Part shown: one piece after another, positions 37,201 to 64,000 of the stretch | How positions within the stretch are numbered: the stretch's first letter is position 1 | Layout: every line of letters begins with the position of its first letter | Assembly (NCBI GenBank): GCA_951406725.2 | Contig: OX597825.1 | Location: forward strand, 76,446,001 to 76,510,000 | DNA: 64,000 nt | Reading direction: 5' to 3' | DNA from: Octopus vulgaris | Lineage: Eukaryota | Made by a program: the position numbers and the translations under genes | Notes under the pieces: generated by a model | Databases searched by the model: none | What the model was told of the DNA's origin: nothing | What the model saw: the letters and a program-made list of their open reading frames with translations, nothing else

Positions 37201-40200
37201 TGTGGAGTAAGCGGGAGATTTGAAGTAAAGTCACCTACCTTCTCTTTGTTGATGCAGACCTCTCTGGCAGTAACGCACCCTTCCACGGGGCCCGACCCGA
37301 ATGCTAAAAATAGCAGCTGCTTTTCCTTTACCTTGTCGAAGCGCCCACACGTCCAGCACTGTCAGCTACCCCATCAAAAAAGCCCAATCATCCCCTGCCT
37401 GCTCACGCGTCACTCCTGCACCCTTCTTCCAGTCAGCTCCCCAGCAACTGACGTCATCCCACACACCACCCTGATCTTAAAGATCACATTCTCTTTATTT
37501 CACATTGAAGTCCACCATCCAACCGGGAGGGCGCCTTGCGCATCGAGATCTTCTCAGGCTAGGCACCTCATTCTCCTCCTCTCCACAATCATCATCCGAC
37601 AAAGCAACAATCCTGCGAAGGCCTAAGACATGTCGCGGCATTCCATCCACGGAGATGTTGTTTCTGGAATTGACCGCCATCACCGTTTCTCTGCTCCATT
37701 GAGACGTACAGCATGCCTTCGGCGGCTTAACTCAGACTTCCTCCCCTATTTTCACATAAGCAGGTCCCTTCTCTCCCTCGTAACACTCCGGCACTTTACT
37801 CAGACACCTCCATTCATATTTAAATATCGCTCTTTGTAGCACAGATTCTTCAGCTTGTCCGGATCGGGGAGACATATTGTACCAGAAAACTGCTTCCAGC
37901 GGCGAAATGTGCCCTCTTTCCGCTATGGCCTTGACTGTCCGCTGGTGCCTCTCTATGATTCTGTTACCACTCAGCCTATACGCTGCTCTGAACAAGCGAC
38001 GCACTTTCCACCAGTCAAGCATATCCCTCAACGCTTCCGTATGAAATGCTGCCCCGTTGTCCATTAGCAGTTCTTCGACAGGACCCCTCTCCAAAAATAT
38101 CCCATTCAAAATCTGCGCAATCTCATCAGCAATGCCTGTTCTCGACTCCCTCCAAATGGCCTGCTGGCCCAGCCCACAGTCGACCATGGAGAGATACATT
38201 CCCTGACGGTAGTGCATCACATCCACAGGTAGCCTCTTCCAGTTGTGCTCCACCGAAAGGTTTCCTTGCTCATGCCCGCATGAAGCAGGGTCAATGGACT
38301 GACACCTGTCACAGCTCCCGACCACTTTCCGGATGCTTCTCCTAGTGACGTCAGCATCAATCTTCTTCGTGAGATACAAGGTCCTTTCCACACCCAAGTA
38401 ATGTCTAGTGTACAGTCTCTTCAGTTCGGAGTCATCCAACCGACACATTGCAGCTATCCCTTTCCATTCCAGCACTGAACGGACAAAATGCCTTGTGGTA
38501 TTTAGTTACGGTCCTCTTTACGATCCATTTTTAATTTTTTTCAGCTATCCCTATCCCTTCTCCAGCTCCTCCAACCACGCCCTTTTCACCATAGTCAGTG
38601 CGTCTGCCCTGCTTCTCTCCGAAGGCATGAAAACCATGATCAGCTTCAGTCCGAACTCAGCAATCAGTTCTCCTAGGACTCCTAGACAGCACTTCATCAA
38701 CATCTCCGTGGCACCTTTCGTCCGAACTCTCCTCTCACCGGTGATCACCGATCCTACCCAGACAAGCACAGTGGCCGAATTCGTCCGGATTTCAATTGAG
38801 CACAGCCCCCATTTCAGGGCCAAGTTCACCCCCTTCAGCACCGTGTCTAATTCGGCGACATTGATGTGGTTAAAGTCATCTGCTTTCCGAAGCGAGGCTA
38901 CGTCCTCTACCTCACCGCCTTCGATCTCCAACACAACCCCTATCGCTATACTGCTAGCATCACACCAGATGGTCCCGCATTCCGTCTTGGGCACATACCA
39001 GTTCCCCCTGACCGGGTCTTCCACTCTTGTCCTCTCTAAGATTTCCTGCATCATCACCACCGTCCCTTCTCTCACCTTGTCGCCCCAACTCTCCCCCTCG
39101 ATCGGGTAGTGACTGACCAACTTCCCACACACCGAGAACAGCTCTCTCCTGCTGACGCTGGGACTCAGCTCTGGGATTTCATTTCCTCTCCTGAACACCA
39201 ACTCACCCAATCTATCTCTTCACAGCTTCAGCCCCAGTGCAGCTCCCCCTTCCATCGGCTCCGGTGGCTTCGCAATCAGTCCGAACTTCTCCAGATGTCT
39301 CACTACCTCGTTGGCTGGCACTACAATTTCGTCCACCAAAATGTCATCTATGTAAGAACTGGTTGCCTTTCTTATCTTGTCCTCTTTCCCTAGGACGGAC
39401 TTAAGCACTGCCGCCATGATCTTCATAGCGGAATTCAGTCCATAATCCAGCCTGGTTAAACAGTACGTTGGGCCCTTGTACCACACCAGCTGATATTGCC
39501 ACAGTTTGTCACTCACATGGAGCTGCAAGTATGCCGATTTCAAGTCGACAATCGTCGCTGCCTTGGTCGACTGTCTCCACACACGTAACATCTCGCCACA
39601 AACGTCCGTCACCTCACCTCCCATGTGGCATGATATATGCTCGTTTAGCTCTCTAAACTCCAGTACTGATCTGACTTTTCCCTTCATCGGCTGCACCACC
39701 GACATCAGAGGTAGCACTCCACCCACTACCTCCACCTCCCACGGGACAAGGACCCCTTCCTCGATCCACCTTTCTACCTCGTCTTCAAACTCAACCCCGG
39801 CGTGGCCTTTCAGGGTATGCTGATAGCAGCTCACCCTGTTTTTCAGCATCTGGGGCTCGTCTTTCCATTGCCACTCTATCGTCCACCGCTGACCATCGAA
39901 CGCCGCCTGAAAATCCTTGTCCTTAATGGTGTAAGCGGCGCAGTCCCTCGCGGGGCTCTGCTCTCTCTGGCGATCCTGACTCACAGTGCACGATACCGCC
40001 ACGCTTCCGAACGTACATCTCCTACAATACTGACACAACTGAGGCGGTTGATGGCGTCCATCCCCATTACCACATCAACCTCGTCAACAACAATTACCTG
40101 CAGCCTTAGCGTCGCGCCTCGCACCACTATCTCTACATTGCTGCATCGGATTTCGCTGCCGTCGATCGCCCAGACGCTACTTGCCCCATTCCATTTCTTC

Positions 40201-41364
40201 GTCACAAGAGTGGTCGTGCAACCTGTATCCACGAGGGCCTTGAACGACTTACCCTCGGCCTCGACATCAATTAAGGGCAGCGTCTCCAAAAGCATCTCTA
40301 CTCGTTTGCGGGGAAAGTTCGAGAGGCAGCAACTTCCCCACGGTCGTTTCCCTGGTCGCAATCACGGGCGATGTGCCCTGTCTGCCTGCATCGATAGCAG
40401 ACGGGCCTCGGTTGCATACACTTCCTCGCCATGTGCGACCCCTGACATCTAAAACACCGGCCTGAGAACGGCCGTTGTCATTGCAAGGTAGGCTTCTTCG
40501 CGTCTTTCTCCGGCCGTCGTCCGTCTTTATGCTCCTCCGTTACCGCCATCGCTATTGCCTTCCGTCCAGTGTTTTGCATCAACATGCGGGCTTGAGTCTC
40601 AAGTTCACTCAGCGCCATCTTTTTACCCCCGGGCAATTGCTGCAGTCGAATCCCTACATCGTCAGGCAACCCACTTACGAACGCCAGTCGCGCTGCTCTG
40701 TCCAGGCTTTCTCCTGTAAACCCAGCCAGTGTGGCCAGCCTGCGCACCCCCATCGCGTATTCATCCACCTGCTCTCCCATCCATCTAATCGTGCCCAGCT
40801 TAACAAAGGCTGTATATTCATACTCGGTGTAAGACTCTCTCAGACGTCGCTCAATCTTCTCCTCACTCAGATTTTCTTCTTCGTCCATCTCGAGATACAG
40901 AGTCAACGCGCTCCCTTCCAAATATAGTGCCATAAGGCTCACCACATCGCTAATGCCTTGCAATCTCGCCACAAGCCTGATTTTACGCATCCAGGCCACT
41001 ACATCGCCCTCACCATTAAAGGGTCTGATAACGTCGCTGGCGATCCTGATTTTAGCTGCCATCGTGGTGACGTCTTATGTGGAGTGCCAAAATAGTTTGT
41101 GGTGTAAGCAGGAGATTTGAAGTAAAGACACCTACCTTCTCTTCTCTCTGGTGGTAACGCACTCTTCCACGTAGCCCGACCCGAATGCTAAAAATAGCAG
41201 CTGCTTTTCCTTTACCTTGTCGAAGTGCTTATACGTCCAGCACTGTCGGTTACCCCGATCGAAAAGGCCCAATCCTCATCTGTCTGCGCGCACGTCACTC
41301 CTGCACCTTCTTCCGGTCATCCCCAAGCTCCAGCCAGCTCTCCAGCTGCTGACGTCATCCTACA
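37201..41364 (-). mobile_element. Full-length degenerate Ty3/Gypsy LTR retrotransposon
   Basis: LTRs 37201-37463 and 41098-41364 (TG...CA), 5-bp TSD ATTTT, PPT AAGATCAGGGTGGTG; gag 40478-41062, PR (ALVDTG), RT (YIDD), RNase H (WCDAS), IN (37732-38475) in Gypsy order; stops and frameshifts. Confidence 0.95.
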
Positions 41365-42619: not shown

Positions 42620-43522
42620 ATAACTTCTTTACGATTCACTAAGGCGGGTCTTTTTTCTTCAAAGCTTGGTTCAAATGCTCTAATTGCTGACAGTAGACTT
42701 GAACATTGATTGTTGCATTAGACGGTAACAATTCAAAGTGAAATACTCCTTTGCAATCCCACCAGATAGAGAGAAGAACCTTTTTCCTATGAAGTTCCCT
42801 TCTTGGCTGTGGTTGAGCTTTTTCCCTTTTACCAAGCCGCTGTTTACGACATTTAACATTTCGATAGAAGATCCATTTTTCGTCACCAGTCACAAGTCTA
42901 TCCAAAAAGGGTGAAATGAGTTCACGAGAATGGAGAAGAGCAGATGTCAAGATTTGTGGTTGCTTTTGGGCAATTCATGAGGCATCCATTTTCCAAGTTT
43001 AGGAACCTTTCCAAGTTGTTAAAGATAACGATGAATAGTTGTATGGTTTAAACTAAGCTTTATTGCCAATTCTTCAACTGATAATCAGGATTTTCTTCAA
43101 GTAATGCCTCAAAGAGCATATCATCAAACTCAACTGGATGTCCTCTATTCGATCTTCATTTTCAAGGCTGAAATCTCCACTTCTGAATTTTGCAAACCAT
43201 CTTCTGCAAGTTCTTTCATTCAAGCATTCTTTCCCATAAACTGAGTGTATGTTTCGAGTCACTTCGGCTGCAGAGTTTCCTGTTTTTATACTCATAAAGC
43301 ATTATGTGCCTCAAATGTTCTTTGGATACTTCCATATTAGAAAGGGTTTTAATCAAAAAAATTTTAATTCTATTATCCTGTAAAATAATATTTAATTAGT
43401 TTAAATGTACACAAATGCATAAAAATATATTTAAATTCCATTAAACATTCTAAAATGCTGTTAAATTTAATTCAATTTTAAAAAAGGTAAAATTAGGAGA
43501 GAACTTATGGGGTGACCTGATA
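42620..43522 (-). mobile_element. Degenerate mariner transposon, 3'-truncated
   Basis: RTCRRWFAKFRSGDFSLE, WMPHEL, LVTGDEKWIFY, KKVLLSIWWD; 5' terminus TATCAGG.. near 43522. Confidence 0.85.
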
Positions 43523-56940: not shown

Positions 56941-57639
56941 ATGTAAAAACAACTAGTGGTCAGTAGAAACAGCTGAAAACTAGAGGCCATGGAATAAACT
57001 TATAGTTAAAGCGTGTGAGGTGGTGGGGAGTACACTAGCAAAAGTGACAGATGGAAATTACTGATGAGGAAACAATGAAAATAAAGGAAAAGTTCTTTTT
57101 GGAGAAAGTGTTCAACAACAACGTTACCCATTCATACATACACAAAAATACATATTGTACCGACCATGGTTGCCTGGTAAGAAGTATGCTTCCCATCCAC
57201 ACGGCTCTGGGGGTTCAGTCCCACTGTGTGGCACCTTGGGCAAGTGTCTTCTACTATAGCCTCCAGTTGACAAAAGTCTTGTGAGTGAATTTCATAGATG
57301 GAAACAGAAAGAAGCCCATCCTGTGTGTGTGTGTGTGTATGTCTATGCTTATCTACCACCTCGTAACGTAGTAGTCCAGGAAAAGAGAATGATAGAATGA
57401 GTACCAGACTTAAAAGTAAAAGTACTCAGGTTGATTCATTTGACTAAAAATTCTTCAACGCAGTGCCCCAGCATGGCAGCAGTCTTATGACTGAAACAAG
57501 TTAAAGATACAATATACATGCACAAAAATACATAAATACACACAAACATATACATGTACAAAAATACATACATACTCGCATATTAAGCAAATCTTACAGA
57601 AATAAGTAATTTTCATTTTATTGAGAAAAAAATTGATAT

Positions 57640-58050
57640 GAGTGAGGGACTAATCCCAGCCGCTGATTAGTAGACTGGGTAGATAGCGAGAACGTGTGTG
57701 TGTGTCTTCGACTGCTCAGATCAAAGACAATGTAACGGAAGAAAAGTCAAGGATATAAGCCCGCCCACACCAAAATTGCCGAACACATCAAACTGAATGA
57801 CGTCATATACTAATACCGAAAGATAGAAAGATTGTCAATATGACAGTCTTAACTAGTTTTAGATGATTATAAAAACATAGGTTTTTCGGGGCAGTGTTTC
57901 GCTATTAATATATGAAGTCAGTCATGGGTGAGCGCGAATGTGTTTGATAGTTAACTTCTGTCGAGCAGACGAAACAATGTCATGACGTCACATACTTTCA
58001 CCGAAAGATTGCAGTTTTCGGTTATTGGATCTTGTCCAAATCCGAATGGT
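57640..58050. promoter_or_regulatory. CpG-rich promoter-like block: two CRE sites, GC box, CCAAT box
   Basis: TGACGTCA at 57798-57805 and 57983-57990; GCCCGCCC near 57759; ATTGG near 58024; candidate minus-strand donor (GTAAG) at 57597. Confidence 0.55.
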
Positions 58051-58218
58051 TTGTTTCAGCAGGGGTTTTTTTTTTACGTGTAATTTTTTTTAAAATCGCC
58101 ATCAATACATGTGCTTGTATTGAAAGAACGAAAGTATTCAATAACAAAATTATTTACATTCTTGATTTTTTTTCATCTTTAATAAATAAAAAAAAAAAGC
58201 TTTTCATCACTAAAATCA

Positions 58219-59160
58219 TTACACAGGATAATAATGCCGAACCCAGTAAATAAATGACATAAATGTATTATCTTTGTGAACACGACGCCAACTGAATTCT
58301 TGTAAGTAAGTCGAGAACAGATTATCAGAAAGTCCATACAAATGTTTATATCTATTTTTCACGTTATTCCACGTCCCTTCTATTTTGTTTCTGTTGAGTT
58401 TTTCATCTTTGGGATCCATAAACTGAAGATTGTGACCAGCTGATTCTTGAAGTTTTTCATAGGAATGACAACCATCCGTTACTATGCAGGTGCCTGGCAA
58501 CACATGTTCAAGGATGATAGGTAACAAAGTGGCACCACTTTGATCAGGGACAGGTACAAGGACGGAATTAAGACTGTGGCGCTCCACCATCCCAAGGATC
58601 AAGTGGCCTTCCTTATAATGACCACGATGATATTGGCGGTGCATAAATTTTGACTCGGCGATATCTACCTTCACTCCTTCTCCTCCGATCTTCGTAGGGT
58701 GATCGATGCACCACATGGCACAGACATCTCGAAAATAGTTATACCAATTAACTATGGCCTCTGAACCAAGACCAACCTGATTCATAACAACAGACTGCGT
58801 GGACTCAATTGACGTCCACCAATAAATAAGTTCAAGATGGCGGGTTAGACGGATAGAAGACTTAGAAAAGAAAGAATCATTCCTAATGCTACGATAAGAT
58901 CTGCACACAGAACAGTGCCAAACTTTTCCATCTGAACATTGTTTACGAGTCACAAAAGTCATGTGCTGGGTACAACATACCACTGAATTGTGAAGTAAAC
59001 CGACCGATGCAAGGAACTTAATTGTACTATCAATATTCTTAGTTACCTGTTGAATATCGTGTAGAGTATATTCCTTTTGAATTAGATCTTCTTTATTAAT
59101 GATCGCGTCCACGATTTTTACCCGAATTTTCGGTTTCTCACGTTCACATATTTCAGTCAT
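58219..59160 (-). CDS. Merlin/ISXO2-like (IS1595-family DDE) transposase-derived protein, 313 aa, intact ORF, first catalytic D->A
   Basis: N-terminal CC...CSVC Zn ribbon plus SIRNDSFF and HTH-like segment; family motifs IGGEG.VDIAESKF, YHRG, G.VER, TLLPII...V.PGT.I.TD, IEG.W, YLQEF.WR. Confidence 0.9.
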   Translation of the reverse strand: MTEICEREKPKIRVKIVDAIINKEDLIQKEYTLHDIQQVTKNIDSTIKFLASVGLLHNSVVCCTQHMTFVTRKQCSDGKVWHCSVCRSYRSIRNDSFFSKSSIRLTRHLELIYWWTSIESTQSVVMNQVGLGSEAIVNWYNYFRDVCAMWCIDHPTKIGGEGVKVDIAESKFMHRQYHRGHYKEGHLILGMVERHSLNSVLVPVPDQSGATLLPIILEHVLPGTCIVTDGCHSYEKLQESAGHNLQFMDPKDEKLNRNKIEGTWNNVKNRYKHLYGLSDNLFSTYLQEFSWRRVHKDNTFMSFIYWVRHYYPV

Positions 59161-59335
59161 AATTAAAACTCGGAGAAAAACTTTCTACGAACTTCTCGGA
59201 GAAGCGGTGAAGTTAAAACCGATAACTGAAATAATGGCAAATACAAAAACACGAATTGCCGAAACGAATAAAATATGCGTTTCAAAATTAGTAAATCATT
59301 ACCTCTAGCTTTTTAGTTAGCGAGGAAATTGCATA

Positions 59336-59404
<69 letters not shown>

Positions 59405-60561
59405 GTTGCTTTGATCTAGTACTTTCAAAAACTTTCAAATAAATAATTACATCTGAGTTTCAATTCTAATTTTAATGATGCGTTTTTTTTTTTATTTTTA
59501 GTAACAAGTGTTTACTTTTCGCTAATGTTAATTCATTAAGTGAACCAATTTGTTTTGTTTGTTTTACGTTTGTGTAAAGAAATGAAAGCAATAAAATATC
59601 ATGAACTATTTATATGTAATTATTCGTTTCGTTTAAGAAAACCAAGTTACTTTTTTGTATTCTCCATTATTTTTGTTTACTTTTACTTTCCAAATGCGGA
59701 ATGAATGTAATTAAATAACAAGAAATTAACACCACTTTTTTATTATTTCGATTTTTTCTTCTTTTAGATCAATTAAAAATTTTTTCTTTGAATATATATC
59801 TATATAAATAAATAAATAAATAAATAAATAAATTTCAGTCATATAGTTTTGTAAACCAGGGAGGTAACTCCTGAAAATATAGTAAAACGTGAGTGAGATT
59901 TATTTATATTGTATTGGGATTTATCCGTGTTTTATTCTATTTTCTTCACTATACTAGAAAACAGTGATTGTTGTTAATCAAGTTTTCCTGTTTAAAGACG
60001 TAGTCGTCACTCTGCGATGGAGTAGCAATGTTAAGAGTTCTGTTAATAATGAGGGTCGATAGAATAAGTATCAGTTGAGCATGTAATCGACTTTATCCCC
60101 CGAAATTGCTGGCCTTGTGACAAAATTTGAAACAATAATTAATATGACACTTTTCAGAGTTACAGATAGTTGGCTCTGAATTAATTACATAGAAAGAGAG
60201 AAAGAGAGAGGCAAGCGTAGTGCATGTGGTTCAGTGTGTGTAAGGGAGGGGGAATGAATCACTAAGGTGGGTGGAACAATGATTAAAGGACGAAGAAAGG
60301 CTGACAAATGAAATGTTGCTAAGTAGCTCCTCCCACCACCATAAAAAGGTTGTTCTCAAGGGGTGGGTGGAGTCTGTGAGAGAGACATTTGGAGGTGATT
60401 ATATTATATATATATATGTATGTAATATCATCATCATCATTGTATAACATCCATTTTCCATGCTGGCATAGGTTGGACGGTTGGACGTTTTGACTGAGGT
60501 CTGGAGAGCCAGTGGCTGTACCAGACTCTGATCTGATTTATATATATATATATATATATAT

Positions 60562-61612: not shown

Positions 61613-62558
61613 TACAAGGGACGTTCAATAAGTAATGCCCCTGACCCACTTGCAGTTGTTTGATCTAGCTGAAATTTGATCTTGCATGTGCAATTATTTA
61701 TATCTCTATAGATTAAGTGGCAAATTACAGCTCTGAACTATTTGTGGTTTCTGATTTACAGGTGTTTGAACTGAGTCAAGTGTGAAATGGAGCCTGTTGA
61801 ATGACGAGCAGTGATCCGGTTTTTGTATTTGAAAGGACGCACACCACGGGAGACTTTTGATGAAATGAAAGTAATTTATGGTGATGATGCCCCATCATAT
61901 GGCCATGTAAAACGCTGGCACCGTGAATTCAAACATGGTCGGAACTCTGTGGAAACAGCTCCCAGATCTGGTCGCCCCCCCCCCCTTCTGCCATTGATGA
62001 GGCATCTGTCCGTCAAGTTGAGGCTGCCATTTTGGAAGATCGACGTATAACTATTCGTCAAATAGCCCATGAGGTCAAGATTAGTACCGGGTCTTTGGAA
62101 ACTATCATTCATGACCATTTGCATATGCAAAAGGTGTCTGCCAGATGGATTCCCAGGTTGCTCACACCTTTCCAAAAGCAAGAACGCGTCGATTGCGCGA
62201 GGATGAATTTGGAAATGTGCCAAGAAGATGAGTCAAAATTTTTCAAAAGACTGATTACACAGGATGAAACCTGGGTCCATCACTATGATCCAGAGACCAA
62301 AGCCCAGTCAATGCAGTGGAAGCACCGTGACTCACCTCCTCCAAAGAAGGCAAGGGTGCAGCCCTCCGCTGGCAAGGTCATGCTCACAGTCTTCTGGGAC
62401 CAGGACGGAGGACCAAGCTGGGGTCTTCTACAAAAACGGTCTCCAGAGCTGCATCAAACGATGGGAGAAATGCGTAACTCTGGGTGGATCCTATGTAGAA
62501 AAAGACTAATAACTGTGCCAAGTTTCGTTGCTCTACTGCTATCGGAACGCCTCTCGTG
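61613..62558 (+). mobile_element. Internally deleted mariner transposon with both termini
   Basis: RAVIRFL, SARWIPRLL, ITQDETW, GKVMLTVFWD, then a jump to RWEKCV..GSYVEK; imperfect TIRs with TA. Confidence 0.9.
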
Positions 62559-62577
62559 TATATATATATATACATAT

Positions 62578-64000
<1,423 letters not shown>

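Follow-up and report, generated by a model that had tools for sequence, protein, structure and literature searches.

Several transposases have been domesticated into proteins that bind or repress the terminal inverted repeats (TIRs) of their parent elements, including SETMAR/Hsmar1, P-element repressors such as KP, and the Drosophila P neogenes. SETMAR is a fusion whose parent is extinct, and the P repressors are truncations. Among Merlins, those of Stentor, Symbiodinium, Perkinsela, and Bodo have been reported as putatively domesticated (PMC8101967), and the word "purifying" is absent from that report. Its accessible part counts 191 Merlin proteins in Octopus bimaculoides, which probably include the proteins described here, unremarked, and does not discuss their domestication. 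Additionally, Octopus transcription factors derived from transposable elements (TEs) comprise ZBED, CENPB, THAP, HTH-Psq, and FHY3 (PMC10027918). In the literature searched, with subscription journals mostly outside it, we found protist candidates only, no animal Merlin domestication with selection evidence, and no work joining ISXO2 with octopus.

In this study, we analyzed a Merlin-derived gene of Octopus vulgaris, paralogue A, within a 64,000-nt stretch of DNA (the window; C12:76446001-76510000 of the 2.8-Gb assembly, where C-numbers are contig labels and C12 is the contig of the window). A second copy on C12, L002, is referred to as paralogue B. The original prediction described paralogue A as a domesticated, catalytically impaired transposase and the only long unbroken TE frame of the window. 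Indeed, it is the longest stop-free frame there apart from microsatellite frames, the other TE frames are partial, and its protein matches the Pfam profile PF12762 (DDE_Tnp_IS1595) with an E value of 7.4e-16. In the Zn ribbon and HTH-like region, which the prediction took to be intact, the CC...CxxC cysteines are kept and the structure model shows three helices. CpG retention was likewise found (observed/expected 0.87 versus 0.43 for the window); however, young TE copies are equally CpG-rich (0.81-0.84), so this feature does not discriminate and was rejected as evidence of domestication. The features of the locus are collected in Table 1. Elsewhere in the window, motifs judged by eye indicate a broken Ty3/gypsy-like element of high GC with gag-, protease-, RT-, and integrase-like frames (37732-41074, minus strand) and partial mariner-like transposase frames (61927-62589, plus strand; 42639-42974, minus strand).

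Table 1. Features of the paralogue A locus, in window positions
Feature	Position	Strand	Basis or remark
Paralogue A ORF, intronless, Merlin/IS1595-derived, 313 aa, no stops	59160..58219	minus	frame translation and Pfam
Zn-ribbon-like region, Cys62/63...Cys83/86 kept (CC...CxxC), spacing as in the young family; putative metal binding	58903..58977	minus	alignments
Predicted HTH region, aa 105-153	58702..58848	minus	helices 105-118, 122-130, and 133-153 in the model
Predicted recognition helix, aa 132-151	58708..58767	minus	20/20 match to young Merlin L007
Ala168 replacing the first catalytic Asp, codon GCC	58659-58657	minus	alignment
Asp229, second catalytic residue, kept	58474..58476	minus	alignment
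VNH motif, eroded and shortened, reads QESAGHN	58429..58449	minus	alignment
Glu261, third catalytic residue, kept	58378..58380	minus	alignment
Upstream block common to both paralogues, 67% identical with 18 gaps; probably a promoter or 5' region	59161..59987	minus	pairwise alignment
21-mer in the upstream block, genome-wide only at the two paralogues	59844-59864		exact 21-mer search
ATTAAA after the stop	58183-58178	minus	
AATAAA, weak candidate poly(A) signal; the lowest contig end (57603) follows after 14 nt	57622-57617	minus	
Merlin-type MITE, 124 bp, TIR of ~32 bp starting GGCA, in the likely 3' UTR	57890..58013		TSD 57882-57889 / 58014-58021, 7/8 match
Further TIR-like end of this MITE family (D7), unpaired	57797..57824		

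Although a single copy had been expected, two were found. Paralogue B lies 3.5 Mb away on C12, is 88% identical to paralogue A in nucleotides and 89% in amino acids, and also carries Ala168; its protein is identical to one recorded under the name O. vulgaris. The next full-length matches reach only 54-57% amino acid identity; these counts from DNA and protein searches are lower bounds, with the best 127 of 759 candidates scored. Instead of many near-identical dispersed copies with an intact Asp, there is thus one close copy, itself with Ala168, and the pair combines the low copy number and the lack of mobile ends of a domesticated gene. The paralogues align over ~1.9 kb (58066-59987), and because 0.8 kb of this homology lies upstream of the frame, the duplication occurred at the DNA level and not by retrocopying. 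The upstream 21-mer occurs exactly twice in the genome, once per paralogue. When the upstream block served as a similarity query, the best 40 of 947 candidates scored yielded a common repeat (60050-60145) and nothing else, missing paralogue B; therefore, the uniqueness of the block is taken from the exact 21-mer. At its N-terminus, paralogue B keeps an RGRP motif that is present in several outside relatives and lost in paralogue A (59125-59160); we take this motif to be AT-hook-like.

Based on the alignment, the predicted change of VEIDE to VDIAE (aa 165-169 in paralogue A) through a GCC codon is borne out: position 168 is Asp in 86 of 93 outside homologues and Ala in paralogue A, which consequently lacks a complete D-D-E triad. 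The second and third catalytic residues remain, as predicted, within TD (aa 228-229) and IEG (aa 260-262), and the VNH region is eroded and 3-4 residues shorter than in the closest relatives. Additionally, the conserved residues K176, R207, W231, H256, and T257 are lost from this domain. Across the positions conserved in at least 75% of the 93 homologues, the clade that carries Ala168 has lost 10 of 35 in aa 156-272, none of 17 in aa 1-155, and none of 6 beyond aa 272, a concentration in the catalytic domain with a Fisher p of ~0.02. Moreover, the catalytic domain of paralogue A is identical to that of the young Merlin enzyme described below at 64 of 117 positions, versus 71-87 of 117 between this enzyme and four other relatives. 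With 10/35 conserved positions lost in the catalytic domain and 0/23 elsewhere, the cutting machinery was reshaped, and the helix predicted to read DNA was preserved. Since the first Asp is gone, DDE enzymology implies the loss of catalysis, and paralogue A is probably catalytically dead.

The two paralogues differ by 47 synonymous and 42 nonsynonymous changes, corresponding to a dS of 0.22-0.27 and a dN of 0.060. Their dN/dS is 0.23 (p 3e-11), or 0.29 with kappa 3 (p 2e-8). Copies of the active family (L005 vs L007) likewise give 0.24, so that a low value is informative here only because selection continued after the Asp was lost. Because both paralogues have Ala168 and the shortened VNH region, their divergence postdates the catalytic damage, and purifying selection after immobilization is thus measured directly on the pair. 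By region, dN/dS is 0.12 in the HTH (aa 101-155) and 0.15 in the catalytic domain (aa 156-313); in the Zn region (aa 46-100) it is 0.56, where constraint is not significant (p 0.2). No gaps separate the two coding sequences, against 18 in the upstream block. In neutral simulations, both frames stayed open in at most 0.16% of runs (0.14% of 5000 at distance 0.22; 0 of 5000 at 0.27), and the neutral expectation for amino acid identity was 57-68%, compared with the 89% observed. Collectively, the two Ala168 copies, the dN/dS of the pair, and the O. bimaculoides counterparts described below support the predicted domestication, and the pair is very probably a domesticated Merlin gene.

As a possible target, we considered a young Merlin family in the same genome, represented by four copies on C16, C28, C22, and C1. 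VEIDE, TD, VNH, and VEG are intact in three of the four; in the C1 copy, VEIDK and LNH stand in place of VEIDE and VNH. The elements on C16 (9.05 kb) and C28 (9.29 kb) have TIRs of ~350 bp that start with GG, and target site duplications (TSDs) of 8 bp. One 21-mer from the TIR has 2,646 exact matches in the genome (control, 0), and among the 100 places listed, many are inverted pairs a few hundred bases apart. Two recently active Merlin families with 11 insertions have been reported (PMC13282606). The 9-kb elements (L031-L034 with L071-L074, on C28, C16, C22, and C1) also carry, on their opposite strand, a LINE fragment of several kilobases that includes parts of the endonuclease and RT, and the C16 copy is nested in a Ty3/gypsy-like ORF.

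Paralogue A and the young transposase are identical at 173 of 303 positions (57%) overall, at 60% of the Zn-ribbon region, and at 45% of the first two HTH helices. In the predicted recognition helix, the match rises to 20/20 against L007 and 19/20 against P0004, four residues ahead of any other window (shuffle p 0.0016). Since 12 of the 17 degenerate codons of this helix differ silently between paralogue A and L007, the match does not reflect recent conversion. Elsewhere in the genome, the same helix matches at 1-9 of 20 positions in 31 further Merlin loci (L040-L070), where aligned, and at 15 of 20 in L003. Outside relatives retain 16/20 (P0007) and 13/20 (P0005), and part of the match is therefore structural or ancestral. 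In the predicted structure, aa 133-153 would be the segment that reads DNA. The lack of significant constraint in the Zn region between the paralogues implies that binding specificity may have drifted.

From these sequence comparisons, we propose that a Merlin transposase gene lost its first catalytic Asp, that the Ala168 gene was then duplicated, and that both copies were retained under purifying selection in Octopus. The protein would bind the ends of the related young Merlin family and its MITEs without cutting, competing with or joining the active enzyme, and such occupancy might dampen the movement of these elements or regulate nearby chromatin. We give this proposal as a whole an even chance of being correct; for the target on its own, once domestication is granted, we lean slightly toward Merlin ends. 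The original prediction named either a host DNA-binding or chromatin protein or a transposition repressor, and between these the conserved helix would favor binding of Merlin ends, with repression of Merlin elements as the presumed consequence of occupancy. However, binding of DNA ends does not by itself account for how strongly the dead catalytic domain is constrained. It is plausible, though on balance doubtful, that the protein was retargeted away from Merlin ends and became a transcription or chromatin factor of the host, with its dead RNase-H fold serving as a protein-interaction scaffold. All of the selection evidence applies equally to such a factor. In its favor are the change of 10 conserved catalytic-domain sites on the stem with strong constraint afterwards, and the differences between the paralogues in the Zn region and in the N-terminal GRP motif, kept only in paralogue B. 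In contrast, retargeting offers no reason for a 20/20 helix match with a co-resident young family despite the turnover of silent sites.

The structure of paralogue A was predicted by AlphaFold2 with a 97-sequence alignment at a mean pLDDT of 90.6 (31 for the single-sequence fold). The model comprises a beta-hairpin region around the four cysteines, the three helices of the HTH region, and an RNase-H-like core. By structural alignment, this core (aa 160-303) resembles integrases and DDE transposases, with a best Z of 11.7 and an rmsd of 3.0 over 117 aligned residues. The aligned ranges start with residue 160 on residue 56 of the SIV/HIV integrases and on residue 120 of PFV. Assuming an ungapped first strand, residue 168, not 166, would fall on integrase Asp64 and PFV Asp128, which we take from their numbering to be the first catalytic Asp. 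This placement bears on whether the protein still nicks or cuts DNA through a shifted triad of Asp166, Asp229, and Glu261. Such a triad would draw on a Glu-to-Asp change at position 166, which shares its predicted strand with the lost Asp and precedes it by two residues, and on the retention of Asp229 and Glu261 in four of four clade members; but given the structural register and the loss of the further conserved residues listed above, including VNH, we consider residual cutting quite improbable, and a non-cutting protein remains our preferred reading.

The Ala168 clade has 100/100 support on a long stem, and its inner order, including the place of P0022, is not settled by the tree. In O. bimaculoides, P0021 is 96% identical to paralogue A (14 differences in 313 aa; tree support 99/98) and P0022 is 98% identical to paralogue B (4 differences in 188 aa), which identifies both as counterparts by identity and tree. 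The Logan protein P0002 is 82-86% identical to the pair and also carries Ala. The same Asp-to-Ala change had been expected in octopods, squid, and cuttlefish together with a dN/dS far below 1; the former was found in the O. bimaculoides counterparts and the latter in the paralogue pair, whereas no squid or cuttlefish orthologue appeared among the protein matches that carry a species name. A search for shorter proteins returned no clade members and three matches at 53-64%, and a multi-domain match, P0031, was set aside as it looks like a gene model stitched together from TE copies. The split of O. vulgaris and O. bimaculoides has been placed at ~34 Mya (PMC10700109) and at 13.3-33.5 Mya (PMC13282606). 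Taking orthology from tree and identity, the dead form would have been preserved for at least 13-34 My. With the calibration of the latter report (JC 0.09 = 25 My), the duplication would date to near 30-37 My ago.

Of the 24 listed sequencing runs, 20 contain this stretch, covering 12 studies and 4 organism codes, and none is on record as RNA; paralogue-B-type contigs are likewise present in the runs. The ORF is covered, with no listed joint inside, by three small contig sets of 61-98 Mb from three studies, whose RNA origin is only a guess. Among the ends listed for the four runs compared, the guessed-RNA contigs end at 57603-57642 and 59209-59327, where a large, probably DNA, run continues. 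The ATTAAA noted after the stop is present, and the AATAAA further downstream fits these contig ends better, if weakly. At 57530-57594, coverage is slight in the DNA run and absent from the guessed-RNA runs, a difference not counted as evidence. Together, these ends give a weak hint of an unspliced transcript of paralogue A. The gene could also be a dead relic that does nothing for the host and has survived through chance, a low mutation rate, or gene conversion. Merlin copies are numerous in octopus genomes, with 191 in O. bimaculoides (PMC8101967), and no transcription is on record for this gene. However, the excess of dS over dN and the ungapped coding sequence between gapped flanks largely refute such a relic, and recent gene conversion is excluded because paralogue-specific residues are common to both species. 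We consider a relic very improbable.

No recognizable TIR or TSD encloses the ORF, in agreement with the original prediction; a separate MITE lies 3' of the stop. When 6 kb on either side was scanned for GG...CC ends flanked by exact 8-bp duplications, a search that partly covers 9-bp or decayed TSDs, no candidate enclosed paralogue A and only noise (score <=1) appeared around paralogue B. The same scan recovered the C16 and C28 young elements (score 17) and missed those on C22 and C1 (2/4). The TIR of the young family is absent from the window and from the neighborhood of paralogue B. A 14-bp inverted match (~56016 and ~59848) was rejected as a TIR, with an E value of 0.66 and a start other than GG. 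The ORF lies outside the MITE, which has no counterpart in the aligned 3' flank of paralogue B, so that Merlin-type elements were probably still moving after the duplication, the alternative being a deletion in paralogue B. That the protein is a fixed helper of Merlin movement, for example a non-catalytic subunit, is barely credible: the same helix match, the continued activity of the family, and the entry of a Merlin MITE into the 3' region of paralogue A after the duplication would suit it, but a fixed host gene has no obvious gain from such a role.

Beyond the pair, the 31 further Merlin-match loci (L040-L070), chosen mostly for open frames, include many intact-triad copies from at least four other families and several open frames in which the triad is eroded, poly-Q is fused on, or a GT donor follows an ILPG motif. 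L003 (C3:154368789-154369736, minus strand) is a third intact Merlin ORF of the same subfamily, in which the first Asp is replaced by Gly; its O. bimaculoides counterpart, P0028, is 81% identical and keeps the triad, and a decayed copy of the TIR of the young family lies ~0.9 kb beyond the L003 stop. Clusters of diverged Merlin ORFs at C7:128.48-128.51 Mb and C14:13.78-13.80 Mb (L052, L053, L056, L062, L081) are all broken at ILPG, where the adjoining GTATG is a likely splice donor. The remainder of L081 (aa 211-286) lies 5.8 kb downstream of the break, and these clusters are candidates for an intron-bearing domesticated family. L057 (C23:46.41 Mb) is a 609-aa open frame with a poly-Q/H N-terminus and a Merlin domain without the second Asp and the Glu, which resembles a fusion of the transcription-factor type. 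Further open Merlin frames, in which the triad is altered (VELGE; SAE; VEIAE) or only the Zn/HTH part is present, were also seen at L040 (C7:30.42 Mb), L049 (C25:33.74 Mb), L048 (C19:53.82 Mb), and P0035 (likely C24:13.12 Mb). More speculatively, octopuses may have repeatedly turned Merlins into host genes, with the pair as a full-length dominant-negative repressor tuned to a still-active family and the dead or intron-bearing ORFs on C3, C7, C14, C23, and C24 as further members; we consider this broader scenario rather unlikely. If true, octopuses would possess an unrecognized group of DNA-binding proteins, with MITEs as binding sites in the thousands.

Dead domesticated transposases are already known as a class, to which the octopus pair adds a Merlin member. 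Few DNA-transposon superfamilies lack an animal domestication backed by selection evidence in the literature searched, and Merlin is among them. The presence of a young parent family with defined TIRs in the same genome is unusual and makes the often-proposed idea that tamed transposases first restrain their own family directly testable. For the debate on how TEs have driven novelty in octopus, the pair supplies additional DNA-binding candidates that are specific to the lineage.

Similar to SETMAR and the P repressors, the octopus gene keeps its predicted DNA-binding part, is probably impaired in catalysis, and has abundant MITEs as potential targets; in contrast to them, it belongs to a different superfamily and is full length. 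It shares with Merlin/IS1595 transposases (PF12762), such as P0004 of the young family, the domain order (Zn ribbon, HTH, and RNase-H-like DDE domain), the length, and the predicted recognition helix. Unlike active Merlins, the pair has lost the first Asp, has an eroded VNH motif, lacks TIRs and TSDs, and consists of two fixed copies with counterparts in another species. Its host-gene origin from a DNA transposon in the same lineage is shared by the Octopus factors of PMC10027918, although Merlin, IS1595, and ISXO2 do not occur in that survey. Finally, the protist Merlins are likewise intact ORFs without TIRs or TSDs, some without DDE and some duplicated without transposition, as far as the accessible part of PMC8101967 describes them; the octopus pair, by contrast, provides a measure of selection since the Asp was lost, and its young parent family is co-resident.
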